DNA of 54,255 nt from Bacteroidaceae bacterium (GCA_963633515.1 CAVGZQ010000001.1:1-54255); one strand, 5' to 3'; shown: positions 8,945-23,154, counted from the stretch's first letter. The notes: generated by a model from the letters alone, not told the origin. Made by a program: numbers and translations.

Positions 8945-11900
8945 ATGCGTTTCGTTTGCGATAAATGCCACACATCTCTGAGTTACCCCGATGAAAAGAT
9001 TACCAAGAATAAAATCCGTTATACATGCATAAAATGCGGAAATGTCGGTGAGTTTTCGGTGAATTCAAAGTCTGAGTCCAAAGATGCTGCAGAAAGTTCG
9101 GGCTTATCGAACCTGAACAAATGGCATGCGACGACGCTGAACACGCCGCGGCGATCGTCGGGCGTGTCCGCCTGGTACTATTCGTACGACGGGACGAGCC
9201 GCGGGCCGTACTCCGAAGAGGCGCTTTGCGCGCTGTTTCAGGGAGAATTGGCCGATATCGGCAATAATTGCCATGTTTGGTGCCGGGCGCTTGAGAACTG
9301 GAAACCTGCGGCGGAGGTCGAGCCGTTTGCGTCGGCGCTGATCATGCCGCCGCCGCCGCCCGCGCCCGTTGTGCGCGTATCCGACGAAAATTTGCCGCCG
9401 CTTTTCGGCGGAAAATCGGGCTTGCGTTCGGCATCCTCTTCGCCGAATGCGGCGCGCGCGTCGTCGCCCGATTTGGCAAGCCTCAAACAGCGCCTCAAAA
9501 CCGAAACGCACTTGTCGCAAGAAGCGCCGACGCATCAAGCCATGCCGGCGCTTGAGTCGCTTGTCAGGGCCGAAAGCGAAATCGCGTCGGAAGACTCCGA
9601 CGGCGAAACGACGAAGGTCGGCGCGGTTTCGCCATTTTTCGCGTTCCGAAACGCCGACGAATCGCCGTCCGGCGGCATCGGCGGGCAAGCGGCGGGCAAC
9701 GAAGACATTTTCAGCATACTCGACAAAGAAACGCGCGCCGCCGCATCGCGGTCTCGCGCCGCCAAAACCGACGCCGAAACCGATAAAAAGGCGCATAAAT
9801 CGCTGCCCAACATCTTGGGCGCGGCGAAATCGGCGGCGCCGATGCCGCTGTTTTCGGCGTCAAAATCGAGCTCAAGTCCCGGCGCGCCGTTCAAGGCGAG
9901 CGCATCATCGCCGAAAACCGGAGCCGCTTTCGGCGGAAACGAGAAGCCGGCGCCGGGCATTGCTTCGATTTTCGGCAATTCCGGCAATGCGTCGCATCTT
10001 TCGCCGCTTTCTTCGCATCTCGGGCGGAGCAATCCCGGCGAATCTTCGCTCCCGGGCGCACGCGCGCGCGATGCGTCCGAATCGCCGCGGTTTTCGGCGC
10101 TCAGACATGCCGCCGATGAAGCCGCTTCGAAATCTGCTCGCGTTTTGCCCGCCGTCGGCGCGGACGGCGACGCAGAGCGTGCCAAAGAACAATACGCCGA
10201 TTTTAAGGAGGATTTGGGCGATATCCTGAACGCCGGCCGGCAGCCGGACGCCGATCGGCTCGGCGTCAATGCCGAAACCGACGGCAGCATGAGCGATTGG
10301 CTTTCGTCCAAAACAAATCTTCCGTCTTTTGTCGAACGTTCCGAGTCGGAAATGTCGCTTGCCGCCATTTCATTCGACGATAACGGTTCTTTGACGGATA
10401 TTGCGCAAGAATCGCGGGGTGATGCCGAATCGGATGCGCATCTCGGCAATAAATCCCCCGCCGAAGCTGCGTTGCCCGCAGACGCCGATCGGGCGCAATC
10501 GATGTCCGAGTTCGCCGGCGGCCTCAAATCGCAGCCGCCCGAAGCCGATGCGCTTGCGTCGGGCGATGTGCCCGATGTTGCGCTCGACGAATCGTCCGAT
10601 TCAAGCGCGGTTTCGAGCATTCCCGATATTTCGCTCGACGCGTCCGGCGATGCGTCGGGCATTTCCGATATTTCGCTCGACGCGTCCGGCGATGCGTCGG
10701 GCATTCCCGATATTTCGCTCGACGCGTCCGGCGATGCGTCGGGCATTCCCGGCGTCACCGACGATTTGCGCAATCCGCTCGGCGAAGCCGCCGAAAGCGG
10801 CGCCGACAAAAACGCATCATCTGCGGCGGTTGGCGGCGAAGCCTCGAATTCCGCTTCGGGGTTTGGCGAAATAAACGAATCTGATGCGTCGTTTTCCGAG
10901 CTCGAAGCATTTTCGCTCGACGATTCGAACAGCCGAAGCAATTTGCCGATCGGCAAAAAGCGTGCGTCCGAAGACGCAGACGATGCGCCGGCGCCGGAAG
11001 GCGGCGCCGGGATTTCGGAAGGTGCCGACATCGTCGCCGGCGATGCCGGATGCGCCGCGCGCGTTTTGCGCGGCAAAGCCGCCGAACGGCGCACAGCGCT
11101 CCTGAATGAAATTCTGGCAGAAGAGCCGGAGGACGAAGCGCATAATATTTCCGAAGAGTCTCAGCTCATCAATCTTCGGCATTACGAAGAAATGGCGCGG
11201 CTCGACAAGCGCAAAAACAACAAACGCATTGCCGCCGTCGCCGTGTTTGCCATCGTCGTCTGCGCCGCGATCGTTTTTGCGCAATTCGGCAAAGACAACG
11301 CCGAGGCGACGCATGCGCCGACGATTGTCGGGGCGTCCGATGCGTCGTTCGAAGCGGTTGCCGGCCGCGCCATCTCCGACGAAGATATCGATCGCATGAT
11401 TCCGGCCGACGATTTCGAAATCTACGATGCCCACGCCGAAGAAAACGCCGCCGGGCATCGGCGCGTCAGGGAGCAGCCCGAAGCGCGGCCGCAAACCGAA
11501 GCTGCCGCCGAGTCCGTCGGCGGCGCCGGAGTTCAGGCCGATCAAAACGAAGCTGCCGCCGCAACTATCTACGGCGCCGAAGCCCAAGCCGAACAAAACG
11601 GCGAAACGGCTCCCTTGCGAAAAGACGGCCGTGTCGGCGTCGAGCTCCAAAAACAGGAATTTGCGAAAACCGATGCGACAAACGGGGCGAAAGCCGCAAA
11701 AAGCGCGTCGCCCATGCAGGAACAGTTCAAACTCGGCTTGAGCGCCATTTCTCGGTCGGTTCAAGAGTGCCATCGCCGCGAAGCAAAAAACGGCGCGATG
11801 AACATCTCCAAAATCTACATCCGTTTCGACGTCGAACCGTCGGGCGCCGTCGATAAATTCGTCATCGAAAACGACGGCATCCCCGAAACGTTCTCAAAAT

Positions 11901-11986
11901 GCATCGACAGCAAGAAAAACCGATGGAAATTCATGCCGTTCGAAGGAAAAACCGTCTCTTTGCGCCAAGGGTTCGTTCTGAATTAG
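8945..11986 (+). CDS. Zinc-ribbon / GYF_2-like / long disordered / TM / AgmX-PglI-type C-terminal domain protein
   Basis: N-terminal CDKC...CIKC ribbon. WYYSYDGTSRGPYSEEAL...WKPAAEVEPF is GYF_2-like. About 600 aa of low complexity follow. TM segment IAAVAVFAIVVCAAIVFAQF. C-terminal ...QECHRRE...IYIRFDVEPSGAV...KCIDSKKNRWKFMPFEG resembles the AgmX/PglI C-terminal domain. Confidence 0.75.
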   Translation: MRFVCDKCHTSLSYPDEKITKNKIRYTCIKCGNVGEFSVNSKSESKDAAESSGLSNLNKWHATTLNTPRRSSGVSAWYYSYDGTSRGPYSEEALCALFQGELADIGNNCHVWCRALENWKPAAEVEPFASALIMPPPPPAPVVRVSDENLPPLFGGKSGLRSASSSPNAARASSPDLASLKQRLKTETHLSQEAPTHQAMPALESLVRAESEIASEDSDGETTKVGAVSPFFAFRNADESPSGGIGGQAAGNEDIFSILDKETRAAASRSRAAKTDAETDKKAHKSLPNILGAAKSAAPMPLFSASKSSSSPGAPFKASASSPKTGAAFGGNEKPAPGIASIFGNSGNASHLSPLSSHLGRSNPGESSLPGARARDASESPRFSALRHAADEAASKSARVLPAVGADGDAERAKEQYADFKEDLGDILNAGRQPDADRLGVNAETDGSMSDWLSSKTNLPSFVERSESEMSLAAISFDDNGSLTDIAQESRGDAESDAHLGNKSPAEAALPADADRAQSMSEFAGGLKSQPPEADALASGDVPDVALDESSDSSAVSSIPDISLDASGDASGISDISLDASGDASGIPDISLDASGDASGIPGVTDDLRNPLGEAAESGADKNASSAAVGGEASNSASGFGEINESDASFSELEAFSLDDSNSRSNLPIGKKRASEDADDAPAPEGGAGISEGADIVAGDAGCAARVLRGKAAERRTALLNEILAEEPEDEAHNISEESQLINLRHYEEMARLDKRKNNKRIAAVAVFAIVVCAAIVFAQFGKDNAEATHAPTIVGASDASFEAVAGRAISDEDIDRMIPADDFEIYDAHAEENAAGHRRVREQPEARPQTEAAAESVGGAGVQADQNEAAAATIYGAEAQAEQNGETAPLRKDGRVGVELQKQEFAKTDATNGAKAAKSASPMQEQFKLGLSAISRSVQECHRREAKNGAMNISKIYIRFDVEPSGAVDKFVIENDGIPETFSKCIDSKKNRWKFMPFEGKTVSLRQGFVLN
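10619..10750 (+). repeat. In-frame 42-bp tandem repeat (about 3.1 copies) inside CDS 8945..11986
   Basis: attcccgatatttcgctcgacgcgtccggcgatgcgtcgggc repeats at 10619, 10661 and 10703 and encodes I(P/S)DISLDASGDASG. Confidence 0.9.
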
Positions 11987-12176
11987 GAACGCGCAAGGCA
12001 GGGGCTTCGGGGCTGAATTCGCCCCCGGCGCGGGCACGGCGCGCCGCCTTGCGGGGATGCGCGGCGTTTCTTTTCGATCGGATCCGCAGCTTCGCGTTCA
12101 AACCGCAGCGGTTTTCGTTCGAATCCGACGTCTGACGGCTATCGGTCGGGCGCCGATGGTCTTTTCATCGTTTTAT

Positions 12177-12185
12177 TGGTATAAT
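12177..12185 (+). promoter_or_regulatory. Candidate extended -10 promoter element (TGgTATAAT)
   Basis: ttGGTATAATtc lies about 113 nt upstream of ATG 12298. The -35 is weak. Low confidence; motif only. Confidence 0.3.
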
Positions 12186-12297
12186 TCTTGGGTTGGGTAT
12201 CGATCGTCTGCGGCGCGCATATCCCGATAATTGCCGGCATGCGCAAAACGATTGACGGCGCGCGGCGCATCGGTTTTGTTTTTCACAGGAGGCAAAA

Positions 12298-12885
12298 ATG
12301 TTCCGTTTCCGTACATTCAGACAGTTGGCTTTTGCTGCGGGACTCGGGCTTGCAACGTTGATGGTTTCGTCTTTTGCGCCGGCCGAAGCTATGGCGCAAG
12401 ACACCGACAAAATCACCATGCAATTCGTCGGATTCGGCGCAAATCCCGATTTTTATGCCATCGTCCAAAGCAGCAAATTGGGCGGAAAATCGCTTGTCAT
12501 CTATCAAATCGGCGGTCAAGGCCCGAAACTCGTCTATCCGCTCGGCAAGACGTCGCTCGAAGCAGCGCTCCTGTCGAAAGAAGTCGCCGTTTTCGGCATC
12601 CATGCCAATTACGTTGCCGGCATGGCGGCGCCTGCCGGATACCGTCTCGGCGGCATGGTTATCGGCGAAACGCTTCAGCTCACGCTGTCGGCGGGCGACC
12701 AATCGATGACATTGGGATATGCTCCGATCTTTTCCGATCCGACAAAAACAAAAGTCGCGCAAATGAGCATCGTCAATGCATTTTGGACGCCCGACAGCAA
12801 ACGCGTCGTCATTATTTTGCATCAGACGCTCGACGGCGATTGGCCCGTCGATTCCGACGTCATAGCCGCCTACACGCTCGGATAA
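12298..12885 (+). CDS. Secreted hypothetical protein
   Basis: AGGAGG SD then ATG. MFRFRTFRQLAFAAGLGLATLMVSSFAPAEA-MAQD has a signal peptide with an AxA cleavage site. No family recognised. Confidence 0.7.
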   Translation: MFRFRTFRQLAFAAGLGLATLMVSSFAPAEAMAQDTDKITMQFVGFGANPDFYAIVQSSKLGGKSLVIYQIGGQGPKLVYPLGKTSLEAALLSKEVAVFGIHANYVAGMAAPAGYRLGGMVIGETLQLTLSAGDQSMTLGYAPIFSDPTKTKVAQMSIVNAFWTPDSKRVVIILHQTLDGDWPVDSDVIAAYTLG

Positions 12886-13138
12886 ATCAACCGCTTTGCG
12901 ATGATCGTTTTCGGCGCGCCGCATCGGGGCAATGCATCGGAGCCGCCTTGCGGGGCATCCTTTTTTCGATCGCGCCGCCGCTGCGCGCCGCCGGTTTGAT
13001 GCGATCGAAGGGGTGGATTATTCGTTTGCGCAACGTTTTTTTTCGTTATAAACTTACGCCCATGGCGTTTGGGCAGGAGCCCTTTTCATCAACGACGCTT
13101 CGCCGCGCGCGGCGAAGATTGTATTTGGAGTTGCAACG

Positions 13139-13510
13139 ATGGCATTTCAGACTGAATTTCAGTTTACGCTCCCGAAAGGTTATGTCGATAAAGACGGCAA
13201 TCTTCACCGCGAAGGCGTTATGCGCCTGGCGACGGCAAAAGACGAAATCGCGCCTTTGCAAGATTATCGCGTGCAGGCAAACCGCGCTTATCTCGTGATT
13301 ATTTTGCTCAGCCGCGTCATAACGAAATTGGGCACGCTTCGCATGATTACCCCCAACATCATCGAAGAATTGTTCAGCTCCGATTTGGCCTATCTCCAAG
13401 AGTTCTATCGCAAGATCAACGAAGAAGGCAGCGCCTCGATCAAAGTCACGTGCCCGGCATGCAAACATGAGTTCGAAGTCGACATGGGGACAGGCCTGGG
13501 GGGGTATTAA
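13139..13510 (+). CDS. Phage-tail/CIS tail assembly chaperone, P2 gpE / Mu gp41-like
   Basis: GGAG SD 8 nt before ATG. ...VMRLATAKDEIAP...ITPNIIEELFSSDLAYLQEFYRKI parallels my memory of the gpE-type pattern (LR.P...D....pe.ieeL...Dy..LQe.Y). The ORF ends 3 nt after a G7 run. Confidence 0.65.
   Translation: MAFQTEFQFTLPKGYVDKDGNLHREGVMRLATAKDEIAPLQDYRVQANRAYLVIILLSRVITKLGTLRMITPNIIEELFSSDLAYLQEFYRKINEEGSASIKVTCPACKHEFEVDMGTGLGGY
13498..13504 (+). promoter_or_regulatory. Candidate -1 programmed ribosomal frameshift slippery heptamer G GGG GGG
   Basis: Zero-frame codons are ctg ggg ggg tat taa. The heptamer 13498-13504 fits the X XXY YYZ form, and the -1 frame is open from 13471 to 13671. Confidence 0.45.
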
Positions 13511-13671
13511 GCTACCCCCTGGATAAGCTGTATCAGGAGGTAGCGTATATCGCTTACCACTTCCACTGGGCGATAGACGACATCCTCAATATGGAACACA
13601 AAGAGCGCCAAGTCTGGATTCGCGAAATCTCCGAGATTAACAAAGAAATCAACGAGAGCCGCGGCGGATAA
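13504..13671 (+). CDS. E'-like extension frame (no own ATG/GTG/TTG start), predicted to be read by -1 frameshift from 13139..13510
   Basis: The -1 frame translates VLSYPLDKLYQEVAYIAYHFHWAIDDILNMEHKERQVWIREISEINKEINESRGG*. The only in-frame ATG would leave 24 aa. The layout matches the P2 E/E+E' arrangement. Confidence 0.45.
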   Translation, partial: VLSYPLDKLYQEVAYIAYHFHWAIDDILNMEHKERQVWIREISEINKEINESRGG

Positions 13672-13729
13672 CGGCGCTTGTCTGTGTGTCCGGTGTTGCG
13701 GTTAAAAACATGCCAAAAACGAGGTCAAA

Positions 13730-15484
13730 ATGACAAAAGCAAGGCTTCCCGGCGTATACTTCGAAGATAATCCCCGCGTCGAACGCGGCGTTTCTTTGGG
13801 CGAAACAGGCGTTCCTGCCTTCCTCGGCGTCGCCGAAAAAGGACCGCTCAACGAGCCCGTCGTCATTCAAAGCGTCCAGCAGTTCTTGCGCTATTTTGGC
13901 CAACCCGTCAAAGGAAGCTATTTGCATGCAAGCATCTGGGGCTTCTTCATGAACGGCGGCACGCGTTGCCATGTCATCCGCATTGCGCATGTTTTCAGAA
14001 ACGGAAAATCCGAACTGGCGCGAAAAGCTCGCTATGAGTTGCTCGACCGTTCCGGATATCCCACGCTCGAAGTACTCGCATCCAGCGAAGGAAGTTGGGG
14101 AAACCGGCTCAGCATCGAAATTAACTACCCGGAAACCGCGCGCGTTCACAATTTCATCACGCTCGACATTCTCCCCGGATCCCGCATGATGACCATGCAG
14201 TCGACGCGCGGCATCGAGCGCGGGATGCTGCTCAGACTTTGCGACGGCGAAAATGATCGCTTCGTTACCGTCGAACGCGTCCGCGGGAACGAAGTTTATT
14301 GGAACGACGCCATCGATATTTCCATGCGTTCTGCGGCGCCGACTTATGTCGACTCCGTCGAATTCGACATGATTGTCAGAGACAAAAAACAGAATCGCGT
14401 CGAAAAATTCATCAATCTGTCGATGGGAAAATGGGCATCCCGAAACGTTGCCCGCGTCATCGGCCAAGAATCGGAACTCATCCGCATTTCCGTTTTGGGC
14501 GCCTGCGGTTACGATCAATATCCCGACAAAACCGAAGAAATTGCGTTGCGCGGCGGCCGCGACGGGCTCGACGGCATAACGCCCGACGACGTCATCGGCT
14601 ATAACAACGGTCCCGACGCGCGCTACGGCTTGGGCGCGCTCGAATCGAACGACGAAATCGACCTTGTCGCCATTCCCGATCTTCAGTTTTTTCTCGACAA
14701 TTGCGACGCTTTTCATAGCGTCCGCGACATGATCGGCATCCAAACCGCCATGATCGCGCATTGCGAAAAGATGGGCGATCGCTTCGCCATTCTCGATACG
14801 CCCCGCGATTTAAAACCCGAACAAGTCTTAGATTACCGAAGCAAATTCGAAACATCGTTCGCGGCATTGTATTATCCGTGGATTGTGATGATTAACGACG
14901 ACGGCGAACCCAAACCCGTGCCTCCCTCGGGTTTTATGGCCGGCATCTATGCGCGCTGCGACCGCGAAGAAGGCGTTTTCCGCGCTCCTGCCAACGTTCC
15001 CGTCGAGGGGCTCAACGCCGTCTATACCCTCATGCACGAAGGGCAATTTGCCGAGCTCAACGACAAAGGCATCAATTGCATCCGCTATGCCCCCCAGCGC
15101 GGCATCCGTCCGTGGGGCGCGCGCGCGCTCACCGGTTCCCCCGATTGGCGTTATCTCATGGCGCGGCGCGTCTTTAACGCCGTCCGGCGCGCCATCTACG
15201 AAAATACGCAGTGGGTCGTTTTCGAGGTTAACGGCAAAGAACTCCGCGACAGCGTCAAAACAATGCTCACCGATTTCTTGGGCAAACTGTGGGCCGCAGG
15301 CTACTTCCCCGGAAAAGTCCAAGACGATGCATTTTTCATTACGTGCGACGAAACGAACAACTCCGCCGAAGACGGCGAAATCGGCGTCATGACTATCGAT
15401 GTCGGCATTGCGCTGGGCAAGCCCATGGAGTACATCGTCATGAGTTTCGAACACAAACTCGAAGAACAGGCCGTCGGCGTCTGA
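13730..15484 (+). CDS. Contractile tail sheath protein (phage tail sheath / eCIS sheath family)
   Basis: GAGG SD. Motifs: N-terminal LPGVYFED...GVPAFLGVAEKGP...VQQFLRYFG...FFMNGG, then GGRDGLDGITPDDVIGY, AALYYPWIVM...PVPPSGFMAGIYARCDREEGVFRAPANV, INCIRY...RPWGARAL, WRYLMARRVFN and WVVFEVNG. These are classic sheath signatures. Confidence 0.9.
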   Translation: MTKARLPGVYFEDNPRVERGVSLGETGVPAFLGVAEKGPLNEPVVIQSVQQFLRYFGQPVKGSYLHASIWGFFMNGGTRCHVIRIAHVFRNGKSELARKARYELLDRSGYPTLEVLASSEGSWGNRLSIEINYPETARVHNFITLDILPGSRMMTMQSTRGIERGMLLRLCDGENDRFVTVERVRGNEVYWNDAIDISMRSAAPTYVDSVEFDMIVRDKKQNRVEKFINLSMGKWASRNVARVIGQESELIRISVLGACGYDQYPDKTEEIALRGGRDGLDGITPDDVIGYNNGPDARYGLGALESNDEIDLVAIPDLQFFLDNCDAFHSVRDMIGIQTAMIAHCEKMGDRFAILDTPRDLKPEQVLDYRSKFETSFAALYYPWIVMINDDGEPKPVPPSGFMAGIYARCDREEGVFRAPANVPVEGLNAVYTLMHEGQFAELNDKGINCIRYAPQRGIRPWGARALTGSPDWRYLMARRVFNAVRRAIYENTQWVVFEVNGKELRDSVKTMLTDFLGKLWAAGYFPGKVQDDAFFITCDETNNSAEDGEIGVMTIDVGIALGKPMEYIVMSFEHKLEEQAVGV

Positions 15485-15500
15485 CCGGTGGCGCCGTTGC

Positions 15501-15530
15501 AAGCTGCCTTTTTGAGGCAGCTTTTTTTTT
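15501..15530 (+). terminator. Rho-independent terminator after sheath gene
   Basis: aagctgcc-tttttga-ggcagctt followed by a T-run through 15530. Confidence 0.75.
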
Positions 15531-15540
15531 ATTTTTGCGG

Positions 15541-15958
15541 CTTCGCCTATTGCCGCAAGCGGCAATACGGCTTCGGGGCTTCGCCTATTGCCGCAAGCGG
15601 CAATACGGCTTCGGGGCTTGGCCTATTGCCGCAAACGGCAATACGGCTTCGCGGCTTCGCCTATTGCCGCAAGCGGCAATACGGCTTCGGGGCTTCGCCT
15701 ATTGCCGCAAGCGGCAATACGGCTTCGGGGCTTGGCCTATTGCCGCAAACGGCAATACGGCTTCGCGGCTTCGCCTATTGCCGCAAGCGGCAATACGGCT
15801 TCGGGGCTTCGCCTATTGCCGCAAGCGGCAATACGGCTTCGGGGCTTGGCCTATTGCCGCAAACGGCAATACGGCTTCGCGGCTTCGCCTATTGCCGCAA
15901 GCGGCAATACGGCTTCGGGGCTTCGCCTATTGCCGCAAGCGGCAATACGGCTTCGCGG
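15541..15958. repeat. Tandem array: 11 head-to-tail copies of a 38-bp hairpin unit with 114-bp A-A-B higher-order period
   Basis: Units start at 15541+38n. A = cttcgcctattgccgcaagcggcaatacggcttcgggg; B = cttggcctattgccgcaaacggcaatacggcttcgcgg. Each contains the palindrome TATTGCCGC-AA-GCGGCAATA. Confidence 0.95.
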
Positions 15959-16167
15959 CTGCGCTGTGCCTGCGGCATGCGCGCAGCGCAGGCAAGGCTT
16001 TTGCGCTTCGCGCCTGCGCCTTGCTCGCGCGCCTTCCGCCGGCGGCGGTGCGGCGCGCATTTTCCGTGCATAAGACCTCGGCGCGGTGCGCGGCCGACGG
16101 AATAAAGACAAATAAAAGCAAAAAAAAAACGAACATTTTTTTGAAAAATGCCAACTTATATAGGGAA

Positions 16168-16191
16168 GCATCGCTATGCGCATAGCGATGC
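16168..16191. repeat. Perfect 24-bp palindrome
   Basis: gcatcgctatgc|gcatagcgatgc lies just after an AT-rich stretch (16100-16165) and just before the degraded nuclease gene. Confidence 0.9.
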
Positions 16192-16217
16192 GCAACACCG
16201 GATGAGGACGGTTCCCG

Positions 16218-16845
16218 ATGCGTGACAATTCCATATTTGCGCGAGAAGAATTGGACGAAGCATATTCGCAAATGACGGTTTTTTCCGACGTTTCTTTCGC
16301 AGCATGTTTTTCAAATTATCTTGGACAAACCCGATATCTCCGTTTCCGAAGCCAAATTGCAAGAGCCCATCGGCAACGCATTCGTGCATTCGGTTCGATT
16401 CGATAGATTGGCAACCGATTCGGAAACGCGCTTTTATAATGCAGAGATCCAAAATGCGAACGACGGCAAATTGCTGAGCAGAGCCGATTATTGCGGTTCT
16501 GCGATAAGAATGAAAAATCTCGGAAAAAACGCCGATTATCGCCATGCTCCAAAGGTTTATGATATTTTTACCGTCAAAAATGGAAAATTTTGCAAAGAAC
16601 GACCCATTAATCGCATTTTGATGCGCGACGATTTGCAGGAAATCTATGAAGTCGGAACGCCTGTTTATTTTGTCAGCGGCAAGCTGAAGGATGCGTCGCC
16701 GTCGGGAATGCATAGGAACGATTTTTTCGTGCAATGCCGCATCGCAAATGCGCGATCCCGTTATTGCCGATCGCTTCAGAGAAGCCATTCGGGAGAGAAC
16801 GAAAATGGACGCCATTTAATTAAAACTGCAAAGTATTGCTCATGA
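16218..16845 (+). pseudogene. Degraded PD-(D/E)XK nuclease family (Rpn/YhgA-like, PDDEXK_2) gene
   Basis: Frame of 16321..16845 has ...VHSVRFDRLATDSETRFYNAEIQNANDGKLLSRADYCGSAIRMKNLGKNADYRHAPKVYDIFT (D...E.Q nuclease core plus R..Y.. pattern). The N-terminal part (MTVFSDVSFAACFSNYL) is in another frame, with a shift near the T-run at about 16306-16320. The C-terminal RDPVIADRFREAIRERTKMDAI is also out of frame. Confidence 0.45.
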
Positions 16846-17097
16846 ACGCGGACGTCCAAAAGGTCTTCAAGCCGGCATGGAAATAGGCATGAAAAAGGCT
16901 GTGCCGATACGCAGCGCGCCATCGTCCTTCGGATGCATGCCATGGGCATGGCCGAAAACGGCAGCGTTTGCATTTCGGGGCTTTCGGACGCAATCGTCTG
17001 CGGTCTTCTGAGCACGGTTCCCAAAGGCTTCCGAACGGAGACGCCGCAATTCGGGCGATCATCGGTCGCAATGCCGCGCGTTGCTGCGCGGCCGGTT

Positions 17098-17244
17098 GCG
17101 CGTATTGCGCTTAAGCGCAATAGCGCAACCCAAAAGCCGTATTTGCGTCTTCGACGCAAATAGGCGCCCGCGGAGGCGTATTTTGCCCAAAGGCAAAATA
17201 GCCGAAGCCGTTGCCGCATTGCGCCAAAGCGCAACAGGCAACGC
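17098..17244. repeat. REP/BIME-like cluster of 4 GC hairpins (GTAT...ATAG orientation)
   Basis: gcgcGTATtgcgc-ttaa-gcgcaATAGcgc; gccGTATttgcgtc-ttcg-acgcaaATAGgc; ggcGTATtttgcc-caaa-ggcaaaATAGcc; gccgttgccgcattgcgc-caaa-gcgcaacaggcaacgc. Confidence 0.8.
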
Positions 17245-17391
17245 TGTGCCGCTATAATCCGCGCTTAGATGCGCAGCGATAATCGCCTGTTTCAGCGCTG
17301 CGGCTCTGTTGGCATTTTGCGGCGAAATCGGGTAAGAATGGCGCGGCTTCGGTGCGTTTGGGGCATGTTTTTGTCGGATATGGAGCAGCAA

Positions 17392-20300
17392 ATGGGATCG
17401 AAAAAAGTGCGCATCATGATCGCGGCGGCAATGGGCATATTTTATGCGGGTTGCGGCAGCGCGGACGGAGAAAAAGCGAGTTTTTCGATATATGCGTCGC
17501 CGTCGCGATCGCATGCTCCCATCGAAGTGAGCTTCGAATTGATGCGCGATGACGGCAGCGATGTTTCGGCTTGCGTCGGGTCGTGGAATTTCGGCGACGG
17601 CGTGACGCTCAGCGGAGAGGCTGCGCCGCGGCATACGTACCGGACCGGCGGCGTTTATGATGTTTCTGCCGAACTTGCTTGCGGCGATGCCAAAGGACAT
17701 GCAACGGCTGGCGTCGAAATATATGATTCCGTCGATTTATCGGTTTCCGGTTTGCAAGCGCGCCCGCTCAATATAACGACCGGCGGAACTTTAAATGTTT
17801 CGGTTCAGGTTGCCAATTCTGCAAACGTTGCTCTCGGCGTTCCGGCATACCTCGATATATATTTGACGGCCGACGGTCAAACGAATACCTATCAAGACGG
17901 TTCTTCCGTGCATTTGTACCGCCAAACGGTTGAAAATTTGGGCAAAAGCGGCGATGACAATTGCGTAAAGCAGCTTTCGATCGAAATTCCGATTCAGTCG
18001 GATATACGGACGGGCGCTTATTATATTGCAGCCGTCATAAACGGCGGCCGAACGATCGGAGAGACTTCTTACGGCAACAATTCCGTTGTTTCGGGGCAAA
18101 CCGTCACGGTGTTGAACGATTTAACCGACGGCGCCGATTTCAAAGCGCTGAGCCTTGATATTTCTCCGGCGGCGACTTCTTTTTTATCGTCGGTGACGGC
18201 ATCATTCCGTTTTGTCAATCAAGGTTCCTCGACCGATGAATCGTTCCGTTATCAAATTTGGATGGGGGCAAAAGATAACGGCGAAGATCGGTCGCAAGGC
18301 GTGCTCGTTCATGAATCGACGATTGAGGGGGGGATGGCGAATGCCGAACAAAGTATCCAAAACGTTCTTATCCCCATTGCGCCGGCGGTAACCGAACATG
18401 GTTTATATTATTTTTGGCTTGCATTAAATCCCGACGAAGCGATCCGCGAGCGCGATATGTCGAATAACGCCATTCGGAGCGCAAGCCCCATTCGCGTCGC
18501 CGACGAAGATATTGCCGACGCCGATATCGCCGTCGAATCTGTATCGATTTCGCCGTCATCGGGCAGTGTCGGCGGCACTTTTTTGACGTCGATTCATGTT
18601 GTCAACCGCGGCGCGCAGCCGACCGGATCTTTTGTTTGCACGATCTTTTTGTCGCCCGACATGTCGCTCGATCCCGATGCGGACATCGTCGCGGGATCGA
18701 TAAATATCGCCGATCTTCCCGCGCATTCTTCGGAAGATGCCGCTTCGATTGCCGAAATCGACACGGGTGTTTCGCCGGGCGATTATTGGGTTTATGTTTT
18801 TTGCGATTCGAGCGGCGTTGTCGCCGAAGTCGAAGAAAACAACAATATACAGCGCGCCGCCGATCGATTGCGCGTAACAGGCGATGCGGATATCGATTTG
18901 GTCGTCGGAGCGGCGGAATATTTGTCTTCGGCTTCGATCCGCGACGGCGATGCCGTTTCTTTTTCGGTTAAACTTTGCAACAAAGGCAAGACCGACGCCG
19001 GTCCGTCGTATATTTCCGCATCCCGCATCAATCAATGCAATAATGCGTCATCCGAAGCCGAACGCCGTTTGATCTCCGGGTTGGCAAGCAACGCTTGCGA
19101 AACCGTAACTTTTACGACGCCGGTTGCATGCGATTTTTGGTGTCCGAATTATCAATTCAAAGTTACGGCGGATGTCACCGATATCGTTATCGAAACGCGC
19201 AAAGAAAATAACACGGCAACGTTGCCGACGATAACGGCAAGCGGTCCGCAGTGCGTTTGTTCGGGCGATGCATACGAGCCGAACGATTTATGGGGACTTG
19301 CAAAAACGATAGGATCCGTCGACGAAGATTTGACGCTGTGTTCAAATGACAAGGATTTTTTCAAACTCGATGTGCCGAAAAATGGTTCTTACGAAGCGCA
19401 TCTCTCGCATGATTCGTCGGCATCGCCGCTTGAAATCGTTTTATATCACGGCACGGCCGCCATCGCATCGTATCACGGGGCAGACGATTTATATATCCGA
19501 GAAAGCCATTATTCATCGGCAGACGGCGATGTAAGGATTTTGATTAAGGGCGTCACTCCGAATGATTTCAATCGCTATCATCTTTCGACATCGATATATT
19601 CCGATGCGGAGGGCATCGATCTTGCGGCATCGTCGCTGACATTCGACGGAATGTTAAGCGCCGCAGAATCCAAAAAAGTCATGCTGAAAGCCGACAATCT
19701 CGGCAGCGAAAAGACGGCGCCGGTAAAAATCGGTTATTATTTGTCGTCCGATACTTCGATCGGCGCGGCGTCAGTGCGCCTTGCGCAGCGCGATTTGCCG
19801 GCATTGATGCCCGGGGCATCGGCTGAGGTTGCCGTCGATATTCTGTTGCCGGGCGATATTCCGGGCGGATATTATTATTTGATTGCCCGCATCGATGACG
19901 AAAATACGCTTGACGATGTGCGTCCGTCGAATAATGAAACGCATTCTGCACGCATGTATTTCGACAAAAGCTGTTACGATTCGCTCGATCCGAACGATTC
20001 GGACAATGCGCGCGAACTCGTCTTCGAGTCAGGCTCAATCCGATATGACGATCTTGCGGTTTGTCAGTCCAATGCCGATTTCTATTCATTCGGCGTTTCG
20101 CACGGCGATCGGCTCGATATATCGGCAACGGCGCAAACAAGCGGCGATTTCGACATTTATCTTTACGATGCCGCCGGCAATGAAATTGCGTCGTCGCGCA
20201 CGGCTTCGCCGACCGAAACGATTCATCTCGATTATATTTTGGGCGATCAAACGCTTATATTGGAAGTGCGGCAAATCGAAAACGATTATAATGCAAACGA

Positions 20301-21336
20301 GAGCAAATATTCGCTTTTTGCCGAAAAGCAATCTGCCGCGCAATGGCTTTCATGCAGCAATGTTTTCGAACCGAACAATTATGCATCGGTTGCGTACGAT
20401 CTTAAATCTGCCGCAACATCGGGAATGACGGCCGAGATATGTCCGGATTCCGACGAAGATTATTATCGCATCGCATTGGCCGAAGGCGATCGGCTCCGAT
20501 TGGGATTCGATGCGTCGTCGTCGATGTTGCGGGCAGGGCTGTATCGCGGCATGCCTTTGCAATTTATTTCGCTCTTGACAAATTTGCGCAGTCAATCTTT
20601 TGATTATACGGCGACGGAAAGCGGCGATTATTATATTCGCGTATTTACAAATGCAACGGCGATCGATGACAAATCCTACCGTCTGAAATGGCTCGGAGCA
20701 TCGGGACCCGACGTCGGCGCATCAAACTTCATCGCGCCTGCGCGAACGCAAGCCGGAGCAGAAATAACCGTTTCGTTTGATATTGCAAATTCCGGAGACG
20801 CCGATGCGCCGTATGCCGCTGCAATATCGATCAATTCCGTTGCGGCAGATACATTTTCGGGCACGCTCAAAGCGAACGCATCCGAACGCGTTTCGCGAAA
20901 AATATCGGTGCCGGAGACATTGTCGGGAAGCGCTGTTTTGCGCGCAGAAGTTGCGTGCGACGGCGATGCAAACATGTCGAATAATGCGATCGAACGCGCG
21001 CTTGCGGTGTTTTCGAAGTGTCAGGATGATGCGGGCGAACCAAACGATAACATTTTGCAAGCCGGCGCAATCGAAGCCTCGGCGAGCGGTTCGATTTGCC
21101 TCGATGACGAAGATTGGTTTTCTGTTCCGCAAACCGCAACGAAAGCGACGCTTACGCTCTTGACGCCGGAGCAAGGTTATCTGAAAATTACGGCATACGA
21201 TTCGAACGGCGCAATGATTGCCGAATCCGATTCGGCATCCGTGCAAGAAATCGTGACTTTTTCCGATGCCAAATACATACGGGTCAAAGGATCGACATCG
21301 GAGAGTTTCGGACTGTATGATTTGAAGATTGAATAG
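17392..21336 (+). CDS. Large lipoprotein with PKD, about 6 CARDB-like and 4 pre-peptidase C-terminal (PPC) domains
   Basis: GGAG SD then ATG 17392. MGSKKVRIMIAAAMGIFYAGCGS (lipobox). PKD motif WNFGDGV...HTYRTGGVYDV. Repeated D(L/I)xVxxxxxxP...N.G modules are CARDB-like. Four copies of (Y/L/F/G)EPN(D/N)....D.D(F/Y/W)(F/Y)... are PPC-like. Confidence 0.85.
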   Translation: MGSKKVRIMIAAAMGIFYAGCGSADGEKASFSIYASPSRSHAPIEVSFELMRDDGSDVSACVGSWNFGDGVTLSGEAAPRHTYRTGGVYDVSAELACGDAKGHATAGVEIYDSVDLSVSGLQARPLNITTGGTLNVSVQVANSANVALGVPAYLDIYLTADGQTNTYQDGSSVHLYRQTVENLGKSGDDNCVKQLSIEIPIQSDIRTGAYYIAAVINGGRTIGETSYGNNSVVSGQTVTVLNDLTDGADFKALSLDISPAATSFLSSVTASFRFVNQGSSTDESFRYQIWMGAKDNGEDRSQGVLVHESTIEGGMANAEQSIQNVLIPIAPAVTEHGLYYFWLALNPDEAIRERDMSNNAIRSASPIRVADEDIADADIAVESVSISPSSGSVGGTFLTSIHVVNRGAQPTGSFVCTIFLSPDMSLDPDADIVAGSINIADLPAHSSEDAASIAEIDTGVSPGDYWVYVFCDSSGVVAEVEENNNIQRAADRLRVTGDADIDLVVGAAEYLSSASIRDGDAVSFSVKLCNKGKTDAGPSYISASRINQCNNASSEAERRLISGLASNACETVTFTTPVACDFWCPNYQFKVTADVTDIVIETRKENNTATLPTITASGPQCVCSGDAYEPNDLWGLAKTIGSVDEDLTLCSNDKDFFKLDVPKNGSYEAHLSHDSSASPLEIVLYHGTAAIASYHGADDLYIRESHYSSADGDVRILIKGVTPNDFNRYHLSTSIYSDAEGIDLAASSLTFDGMLSAAESKKVMLKADNLGSEKTAPVKIGYYLSSDTSIGAASVRLAQRDLPALMPGASAEVAVDILLPGDIPGGYYYLIARIDDENTLDDVRPSNNETHSARMYFDKSCYDSLDPNDSDNARELVFESGSIRYDDLAVCQSNADFYSFGVSHGDRLDISATAQTSGDFDIYLYDAAGNEIASSRTASPTETIHLDYILGDQTLILEVRQIENDYNANESKYSLFAEKQSAAQWLSCSNVFEPNNYASVAYDLKSAATSGMTAEICPDSDEDYYRIALAEGDRLRLGFDASSSMLRAGLYRGMPLQFISLLTNLRSQSFDYTATESGDYYIRVFTNATAIDDKSYRLKWLGASGPDVGASNFIAPARTQAGAEITVSFDIANSGDADAPYAAAISINSVAADTFSGTLKANASERVSRKISVPETLSGSAVLRAEVACDGDANMSNNAIERALAVFSKCQDDAGEPNDNILQAGAIEASASGSICLDDEDWFSVPQTATKATLTLLTPEQGYLKITAYDSNGAMIAESDSASVQEIVTFSDAKYIRVKGSTSESFGLYDLKIE

Positions 21337-21675: not shown

Positions 21676-23154
21676 ATGGCTCAAGCCCTGCAAAATAAAG
21701 CCTCAGCCAAAAAGGCCGAAGCTGCGCCGACGGTCAAGACGGACAGCCTTCAAAATGCCAAGACGAAAAGCGCGGCAACGGCGCAAGCCGGCAAGATTGC
21801 CGCAGCTGCCGATCATTCTCAAGAGCAAACGGCTTCGCCCGCCGAACAGCTGGTTGCGGCGACAGCGTCGAAAAATAGCGCCGAAATTCTGTCGGCGCTC
21901 CGGGGCATGACGTCGGATGAACGCAAATCGGTCGCCGGGAAAACCGACTTGATGAGCAATCTTGCTGCGCTTAATTCCGACGACAATCTCAACGCAAGCA
22001 TGGACTTGCTTTATGAACATATCTGCGATGATGCGGTTATGCAGACGTTTGTCGAAAAGCGTTATGGCGTCAAGCTCGGCACCAAAACGCTGCGCGGGAA
22101 GATTTTCAAACTTTTGTGCTGCACAAAAGATGAGGAACAGGCTTGGACGGCAAACGGCGCGCGGCATTTGTATTATAGCTTGGGATTGTTGCCCCAAAGC
22201 CATGTAAGCAAAGTGAGCGCAATCACGACGATGAATACCCAAAATGGCGGCGGCGGCGTGGCGCTCGGCTGGACGGGAAGCTACAATGTCAACTACACCG
22301 ATTCCAACACGTCGGCAGTCGCGGGAAGAGGCTATTGCGACACGAAACAAGATTACAAATATGATCTCAATTCGCTCGATTGCACAATGGTGCATGAGTT
22401 GGGACATATCGTCGATGTCGGGCAAAAATATTCCAAACGCGACGACTTCCGCGCCATAAGCGATTGGAAATCCGAGGGCAAATCGGCGCAAAATATTGCT
22501 TCGGCCATCGAATCTTATGCAGCGAATCCTTATCCCGACGGTTTGACCGCCGAAGAAAAAGAAATTGCCCGCGAGGGCGCCAAATTGCTCGTCAAAAATC
22601 GCGTTGTCGGCGATTCAAACGGCAATCCCATCGAAGAAAATATCTTGCCTCGCGTGCAAAAAGCGTATGGCAATCTCGGAAAACGCAGCGGCAAAACGCC
22701 GTCGTTTCTCGATAAAGCTTTCGATATGTTAAAAGGCAATCGCGACAATAACGATTATCGCGGCGCGGCCGAACTTACCAAAGTTTTGATGAATTCTGCG
22801 GTATACAAGCATATCGCGCGTTCGTTTACGTACTATTATGCCGCCGCCGACGGAAAGCGTCATCAATACATGCCGTGGTACAGGGGCGCGCGCAGCGACA
22901 TGCATCGTCAAATCCACGAAGGGTACGAAGGACGCGGTTGGTATTCATTTTCCAATGCGGCTTGGGCGCAGAAGATCAGCATGTATCAGTTCCGCGATCC
23001 CGGAGAAGAGTTTGCCGAACTTTATGCATCGTACCATGTCGCAAGCCCGAAAGGCTCCAAGACGAGTGCCGCGCATAAAGAATGGTTCGAGCGCATGGGG
23101 TTGCATCAGGATGCCCCCGAAAAGACATCATCCGGCAAAGGCGGCAAATTCTAG
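21676..23154 (+). CDS. Putative zinc metalloprotease (HEXXH), no signal peptide, disordered N-terminus; candidate toxin/payload
   Basis: GGGAGA SD. HELGH at 22393-22407 (residues 240-244). Downstream DPGEEFAELYASYH (23002-) is reminiscent of the glutamate-containing third-ligand helix of anthrax-LF-like (ATLF) proteases. The first roughly 75 aa are A/K/Q/T-rich. Confidence 0.7.
   Translation: MAQALQNKASAKKAEAAPTVKTDSLQNAKTKSAATAQAGKIAAAADHSQEQTASPAEQLVAATASKNSAEILSALRGMTSDERKSVAGKTDLMSNLAALNSDDNLNASMDLLYEHICDDAVMQTFVEKRYGVKLGTKTLRGKIFKLLCCTKDEEQAWTANGARHLYYSLGLLPQSHVSKVSAITTMNTQNGGGGVALGWTGSYNVNYTDSNTSAVAGRGYCDTKQDYKYDLNSLDCTMVHELGHIVDVGQKYSKRDDFRAISDWKSEGKSAQNIASAIESYAANPYPDGLTAEEKEIAREGAKLLVKNRVVGDSNGNPIEENILPRVQKAYGNLGKRSGKTPSFLDKAFDMLKGNRDNNDYRGAAELTKVLMNSAVYKHIARSFTYYYAAADGKRHQYMPWYRGARSDMHRQIHEGYEGRGWYSFSNAAWAQKISMYQFRDPGEEFAELYASYHVASPKGSKTSAAHKEWFERMGLHQDAPEKTSSGKGGKF

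Follow-up and report, generated by a model that had tools for sequence, protein, structure and literature searches.

The window, by which we mean the whole 54,255-nucleotide stretch of DNA analysed here, very probably carries one assembly-chaperone gene that is expressed as two products, of 123 and 177 aa, through a programmed −1 ribosomal frameshift; the case is built on comparative sequence analysis. Under the mechanism that we propose, most ribosomes would read the chaperone ORF to its stop codon and release the 123-aa protein, and a fraction of them would slip back by one base on a heptamer of G residues close to the ORF's 3′ end (Table 1). The glycyl-tRNAs on the GGG codons could re-pair perfectly one base upstream, and a hairpin located just downstream would hold the ribosome during the slip. 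Shifted ribosomes would then continue in the −1 frame, adding 55 residues that correspond to the family DUF6760. By analogy with G/GT of phage lambda and E/E+E′ of phage P2, the N-terminal part shared by both products may coat the tape-measure protein. The same phage analogy would have the extension recruit tube subunits, with the ratio of short to long product set by the efficiency of the frameshift. Chaperone pairs of this phage kind are made at a fixed ratio, tail assembly requires both members, and neither is retained in the completed particle. We infer the shifting of the ribosomes, its rate and the binding partners of both products.

Table 1. Features of the chaperone–DUF6760 locus and of neighbouring genes in the window
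Feature	Position	Strand	Basis
Tail-assembly-chaperone-like short product, 123 aa	13139–13510	+	Translation; phrog_508 match
Slippery heptamer G GGG GGG, proposed −1 shift site	13498–13504	+	Sequence; X XXY YYZ in the zero frame
Spacer TATTAA, 6 nt, including the zero-frame stop TAA (13508–13510)	13505–13510	+	
Hairpin GCUACC-C-CCUG(G) ... (U)CAGG-A-GGUAGC, proposed stimulator	13511–13544	+	Fold and covariation
−1-frame extension DUF6760, 55 codons plus stop, gpE′-like helical peptide	13504–13671	+	PF20546 match
Contractile sheath gene, 584 aa	13730–15484	+	Phage_sheath_1 E 1.9e-13; Phage_sheath_1C E 1e-10
AAA+ ATPase, 778 aa	23844–26180	+	AAA domain E 8e-26 and winged-helix variant

Two overlapping frames and their conservation

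The zero-frame ORF ends with the residues ...GTGLGGY, its final codons being CTG (13496–98), GGG, GGG, TAT and TAA. The run of G that these codons contain comprises exactly seven residues, and the stop codon is found 4 nt past the heptamer. The 123-aa ORF, the seven-G run and its X XXY YYZ phase had all been put forward in the original prediction and are borne out by the sequence and its translation, as is the claim of an open −1 frame spanning 13471 to 13671. This frame follows a TGA at 13468–70, ends with a TAA at 13669–13671 and encodes a peptide that reads ...GGVLSYPLDKLYQEVAYIAYHFHWAIDDILNMEHKERQVWIREISEINKEINESRGG up to the stop. Two details have to be amended. The G run was said to lie two codons before the stop; it is indeed close to it, but only one sense codon (TAT) intervenes. 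The −1 frame was also said to lack a start before its last 24 codons, and the absence of a start holds, as neither ATG, GTG nor TTG occurs after the upstream stop until an ATG at 13591. However, that ATG leaves 26 codons rather than 24, and no start is present before codon 30 of the extension. The predicted long product consists of residues 1–122 plus 55 residues (177 aa), with ...GTGLGG joined to VLSYPLDK..., and the predicted junction peptide of the fusion is ...GTGLGGVLSYPLDK.

Together with the window, 116 loci were inspected. The other 115 comprise 80 species-level genomes of Myxococcota/Bradymonadia (L001–L080), 30 loci from other families of the same phylum, and L081 with four distant loci (L122–L125). 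Relative to the chaperone ORF, DUF6760 is in the −1 frame at 116/116 of these loci (81/81 for the window and L001–L080, 30/30 for the other families and 5/5 for the distant injection-system loci), and an in-phase G GGG run is found ahead of it in every one. Of the 76 loci that were tabulated, 74 have a run of at least five G starting at codon position 3. The slip site takes the form G GGG GAA in 57 loci, G GGG GGG in 12 and G GGG GGA in 5; in two loci of Kofleriaceae/Haliangium type, TGA comes directly after G GGG. The seven-G form is that of the window and its nearest relatives, and was retrieved from 12 independent assemblies of the window's clade. The in-phase slippery run, the nearby zero-frame stop and the open −1 frame, which the original prediction had proposed to check by aligning homologous loci, are thus all conserved. 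In 20 of the tabulated loci, a −1-frame TGA stands one codon ahead of the G run, which confines entry into the frame to CTG GGG GAA TCG.

The commonest form of the slip site, G GGG GAA, departs from the strict X XXY YYZ pattern, and its re-pairing in the A site would involve a G:U pair in the middle position. GGGGGAA is among the slip motifs observed in phage chaperone genes, with full re-pairing of the A-site tRNA if G:U is allowed (PRFect paper, PMC10885494). A pentamer resembling a Shine-Dalgarno (SD) sequence, located 8–16 nt upstream of the slip site, is frequent in relatives (113/138 matches) and weak in the window itself (−5.5 kcal/mol). Stimulation of the shift by such an upstream element is a possibility raised by these matches.

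Alternatively, DUF6760 might be translated as a separate protein, by termination–reinitiation or from a start codon that overlaps the stop (GTGA or ATGA), the G run then serving as an SD-like element. Some relatives would suit such an arrangement. GTG overlaps a TGA stop in 24/76 tabulated loci, and ATG does so in L026. L081 and L122–L125 have an ATG or GTG either across the slip site or past it, with the ATG overlapping the stop in L081, L122 and L125. GGGGG is also able to pair with the anti-SD, and both gene callers and PGAP annotate a stand-alone DUF6760 protein of 53–55 aa. However, when the −1 frame is read from its preceding stop, 40/76 loci have no ATG, GTG or TTG ahead of the conserved SYPL motif, and in 43/76 the zero-frame stop is TAA, which gives the codon GTA in the −1 frame. 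An overlapping ATG, where there is one, arises automatically when GAA is followed by TGA. Between the G run and the start there are 0–4 nt, too short a distance for an SD, and a strong hairpin 0–6 nt past such a start would hinder initiation. Some of the PGAP models of DUF6760 place their initial 'M' on an ATC codon (P0144 vs L050). Moreover, separate translation leaves unexplained the constant −1 relation and the natural fusions described below. An independent start is rejected for the window because no start codon is present there. Separate translation of DUF6760 is possible in the minority of relatives with a GTG or ATG at the stop; as a general account of the locus, we regard it as distinctly improbable and prefer the ribosomal frameshift. 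As for the gene models themselves, which NCBI labels 'DUF6760 family protein', P0144 begins with MVSYPL where the DNA of L050 reads GGA ATC GTA AGC, and P0228 and P0239 begin likewise (L028 and L064, respectively).

The downstream hairpin and the origin of slippage

The proposed stimulator is a hairpin of 11 pairs with a 6-bp lower stem and an upper stem of 4–5 bp, separated by a C.A mismatch or a bulged A. It starts 6 nt past the heptamer, which is the canonical spacing, and the length of the spacer is unchanged across alignments A3 and A5. In the window, the minimum free energy of the hairpin is −16.5 kcal/mol, with a z of −2.0. Within the window's subfamily (70 distinct sequences), pairing amounts to 98.7%; a second subfamily, which uses the bulged-A register, reaches 95.3%. 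When 79 sequences were aligned with a covariance model, 97.0% of the cells were paired and changes on both sides were detected in 5 of the 11 pairs (15 cells), counts that lean towards structure as the alignment is fitted to the model. None of 500 shuffles reached any of five measures, and slid controls attained at most 61%.

Compensatory changes are found in a number of loci. A C-G pair is replaced by U-A in L027 and L067, a G-C pair by C-G in L081 and a G-C pair by U-A in L090, L092, L100, L105 and L109, and two pairs are compensated in L091. L123 likewise shows a change from C-G to U-A. More extensively, GCUACC/GGUAGC has become GGCCACC/GGUGGCC in L122, and CCUGG/CCAGG has become CCUCG/CGAGG in L081, L122 and L125. 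Synonymous-codon entropy, which is independent of the alignment model, is 0–0.54 bits for the stem codons vs 0.7–1.9 bits just outside, and it is in the two hairpin arms alone that synonymous positions are frozen. The valine codon GTA, for example, is used in 74/77 sequences at the stem, but in 1/40 at another valine position. L022 and L025 are exceptions, with four hairpin mismatches each. A search of positions 13300–13800 against Rfam retrieved no known RNA family. In a 141-nt fold, the G7 run (region 13498–13519) can pair with ACCCCC of the hairpin 5′ arm (GGGGGGGU...CUACCCCC); this alternative hairpin and the stimulator hairpin are mutually exclusive.

The spacing of the hairpin and the phase of the G run also bear on whether the slippage could be transcriptional. 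An RNA polymerase that added one G within G7 would give, upon normal translation, an identical fusion of 177 aa, and polymerase slippage on seven G is conceivable. The established cases of efficient slippage by bacterial polymerases concern runs of nine or more A or T. Only five G are present in most relatives (57/76), a run on which polymerases would hardly slip efficiently, and a hairpin at 6 nt combined with a strict run phase (position 3 in 74/76 loci) is characteristic of ribosomal and not of transcriptional slippage. We therefore consider slippage of the polymerase very improbable and retain slippage of the ribosome as the preferred reading.

The chaperone and its DUF6760 extension

The upstream ORF matches phrog_508, 'tail assembly chaperone', with an E of 5e-8. 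PHROG 508 was matched by 8/8 diverse chaperone homologues (that of the window and seven further ones, including distant ones), and some sources label homologues of the upstream ORF 'phage tail assembly protein'. In the alignment columns of the chaperone ORF, an invariant C-P-x-C-x-H...D motif is found immediately before the slip site. Neither Pfam nor NCBIfam contains a family matching the upstream ORF of the window, and no Pfam chaperone family was retrieved above threshold, the best being PF10109 (E 0.0011), from one distant fusion. A comparison of the upstream ORF with P2 gpE by hhalign gave only 0.2%, with no profile similarity between the N-terminal domains. Zero matches were obtained when the chaperone was searched with tblastn against 50,697 phage records, and its profile matched no PDB chain. 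The AlphaFold2 model of the 123-aa ORF, built from a 20-sequence alignment, had a pLDDT of 44 and was unusable. Some relatives carry tandem chaperone domains within one ORF of 211–259 aa (L066 1–540; P0008 and P0025), and in these the slip site is present only after the second copy.

The −1-frame peptide matched the Pfam profile DUF6760 (PF20546) with 57.2 bits (E 1.8e-15), the curated gathering threshold being 27, and DUF6760 was retrieved with 55.1 bits in a genome-wide profile search of the source assembly. The family is present in 172/401 sampled genomes of the phylum. Besides DUF6760 itself, PF06528 (Phage_P2_GpE) is the sole family that DUF6760 members match repeatedly; 9/24 members did so, all below the Pfam cut-off (best E 0.007; window E 0.17). 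PF06528 is carried by the homologues of P2 E′, whose annotation reads 'GpE family phage tail protein'. As a P2 reference we used the annotated E+E′ gene (AF063097), translating its −1-frame part for the comparison. The hhalign score of the DUF6760 profile was 84% against P2 E′ alone (E 7.5e-6) and 90.8% against a 17-sequence E′ alignment (PF06528), the latter with an E of 1.2e-6 over 42 columns and a shared FHW motif. This second alignment and the PHROG 508 match upstream support the original designation of the two products as a pair of the E/E+E′ type. From these profile comparisons, DUF6760 is most likely an E′-like frameshift extension of the assembly chaperone and the counterpart of P2 E′. 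The DUF6760 profile matched no solved chain in the PDB.

Natural fusions of the chaperone and DUF6760 in a single ORF were detected in distant relatives (P0271, P0335 and P0338), one of which weakly matches Phage_TAC_7. Their existence argues that the fusion is a genuine product of living cells.

The DNA of the chaperone–DUF6760 region (13136–13671) is 77–84% identical in 9/10 aligning relatives and 69.5% identical in L017, whereas the adjoining sheath DNA (13742–15484) is only 64–72% identical in most of the same relatives. For a chaperone, such conservation of the DNA is unusually strong. Judged from sequence, both halves of the product, chaperone and DUF6760, are under strong purifying selection, which speaks against the locus being an artefact or in decay, that is, either a homopolymer miscall in a true gene of one 177-aa ORF or a recently broken pseudogene. 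Homopolymers are error-prone, and rare fused entries do exist in the databases (P0003, P0010 and P0036). However, the split arrangement was found in all 116 loci, and among the approximately 8000 chaperone homologues retrieved by protein search nearly all have 122–124 aa, i.e. the split form, and few are fused. One of the fused entries, P0003 (174 aa), comes from L119 (1510–1535), where two G4 runs occur within 20 nt; its near relative L019 has G5 in both. Because both G runs of L119 are shortened in comparison with L019, P0003 probably reflects sequencing errors in homopolymers and not a fusion that exists in nature. For the window, a homopolymer indel in a single fused ORF, which had been named as the alternative in the original prediction, is excluded by the identical G7 in 12 independent assemblies, the G5 or G6 found elsewhere and the unchanged frame relation. 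All in all, an artefact or a decaying gene has a practically negligible chance of accounting for the locus, and we continue with the programmed frameshift.

Genomic setting and comparison with known systems

The sheath gene adjoins the chaperone–DUF6760 pair downstream and in the same orientation. The AAA+ ATPase encoded farther downstream is possibly the Cis15/Afp15-type ATPase of the system, a link suggested by its proximity. No family match was obtained for the upstream neighbour (12298–12885). Other injection-system genes are found elsewhere in the 332-contig assembly, namely gp19-type tubes on contigs C71, C58 and C63, gp25 on C118 and Pvc16_N on C71. The sheath, tube, gp25 wedge, Pvc16 cap and AAA+ ATPase genes fit a contractile injection system (Afp/PVC-like). 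As the tube, cap and gp25 genes are encoded on four contigs outside the window, they are either dispersed in the genome or split by fragmentation of the assembly.

The order chaperone then sheath is kept in L001, L017, L060 and L119. The gene orders of relatives are Pvc16 cap–sheath–chaperone–sheath–tube (L017), chaperone–sheath–tube (L001), sheath–tube–chaperone–sheath–tube (L119) and tube–chaperone–tube (L081, L123 and L125). The original prediction had placed the chaperone in an injection-system context upstream of the sheath and not between tube and tape measure. The sheath is indeed downstream; the lack of an adjacent tube, however, is special to the contig of the window, unlike in the relatives. 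In the window, the chaperone does not lie between tube and tape-measure genes, and no tape-measure gene was identified.

Starting 55 nt past the sheath stop, a tandem array (15539–15964) contains 11.2 copies of the 38-nt unit GGCTTCGCCTATTGCCGCAAGCGGCAATACGGCTTCGG with 94% matches, each unit holding the palindrome TATTGCCGC/GCGGCAATA. The array masquerades as a 205-aa ORF (15488–16105) and occupies the place of the gp19 tube gene in the close relatives L001 and L017. Nucleotide similarity to all relatives (L001–L009 and L060) ends exactly at the stop codon of the sheath (15484) when the region 15485–17268 is compared, and the synteny upstream (11624–12885) is common only to L060. Such limits point to a rearrangement, or to the joining of contigs, downstream of the sheath. 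Between the sheath and the AAA+ ATPase, there are also a 1355-aa protein with CARDB, PKD and PPC domains (17269–21336) and an ORF of 492 aa that weakly matches a metallopeptidase (21676–23154), whose products could be fibre, cargo or unrelated.

The principle of −1 frameshifting in tail-chaperone genes is textbook knowledge for phages. Our literature search found no mention of DUF6760, and the contractile injection system papers, component lists and assembly models that we searched mention neither the chaperone nor a frameshift. We found no prior description of a chaperone frameshift in contractile injection systems, the principle being known from phages. DUF6760, which also occurs in other injection-system lineages, would gain a role as the extension of an assembly chaperone. 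The annotation of such loci would be corrected as well; gene finders either overlook the extension or begin it at codons that cannot be starts (ATC or GTA taken for Met), and in no case do they connect the two frames. If the long form is required, it would bear on tube length, the control of assembly and the production of particles in other hosts. The slip site, spacer and hairpin together provide a clean and deeply conserved example from bacterial chromosomes with natural covariation, useful for studies of −1 frameshifting on G runs.

A more far-reaching proposal, which we offer tentatively and consider rather unlikely, is that the chaperone–E′ frameshift cassette is an ancient, essential and overlooked core of non-phage injection systems, inherited from an ancestor shared with P2-like tails. 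The cassette could, with the same reservation, be defined by an in-phase G GGG, a spacer of 6 nt and a hairpin in two parts. AGGAGGU, a perfect Shine-Dalgarno sequence, makes up the 3′ arm of this hairpin, and the anti-SD is imitated by its 5′ arm. Such an SD/anti-SD-mimic hairpin might tune the short:long ratio that controls tube assembly. Were this proposal true, parts lists, including those of engineered PVC-type delivery systems, would be short of one protein, and heterologous production would depend on the frameshifting efficiency of the host.

Several known systems can be compared with the present locus. Like DUF6760, the spike-plug protein Cis6/Pvc6/Afp6 is small, helical and encoded among tube genes, and it is essential (PMC8894136, PMC12546770). 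However, DUF6760 matches no solved chain, and in L081 and L123 the Cis6 position is taken by other small genes; for both reasons, DUF6760 is probably not the Cis6/Pvc6 spike plug. Escherichia coli dnaX also offers a chromosomal −1 shift, with a heptamer followed by a stable hairpin 6 nt later, and its SD-like element has counterparts that are common in the relatives examined here. In dnaX, however, the shift leads to early termination and not to a functional extension, and the window itself has a weak SD-like element upstream. The GGGGGAA ('fivetwo') frameshifts in the chaperone genes of actinobacteriophages take place on the same slip sequence as in most relatives of the window, likewise at the 3′ end of the gene (PMC10885494). 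They belong to phages and have no demonstrated homology to the present locus; the clade of the window has upgraded its slip site to a full G7.

The logic of lambda gpG/gpGT is the same, with a shared N-terminus and a second product obtained through a −1 shift close to where the first ORF ends. Lambda differs in that no sequence similarity to G or T is found here and in that a conserved hairpin is present; to our knowledge, the lambda G/GT shift needs no strong downstream structure. In long-tailed phages, the −1 shift occurs at a low level, and the ratio of the two products is thought to be critical for the assembly of the tube on the tape measure (Levin et al. 1993; Xu, Hendrix and Duda 2004, as cited in PMC5009743).

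P2 gpE/gpE+E′ differs from the present case in that its slip site is annotated as a T run, compared with the G-rich sites found here (G GGG GGG or G GGG GAA). The N-terminal domain encoded here has no detectable similarity to gpE and carries C-x-x-C-x-H, and the gene belongs to a presumably headless injection system, where it is located before the sheath and not between tube and tape measure. In both systems, nevertheless, a contractile tail is associated with a short chaperone ORF that has a homopolymeric slip site at its 3′ end (in P2 within the operon FI-FII-E-E′-T; AF063097), and annotation pipelines call the P2 extension, like the present one, as a separate small protein, there of the 'GpE family'. 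The −1 extension is likewise about 55 residues long in both, with the shared motif ...A.I..FHW....L..M...E...W.....
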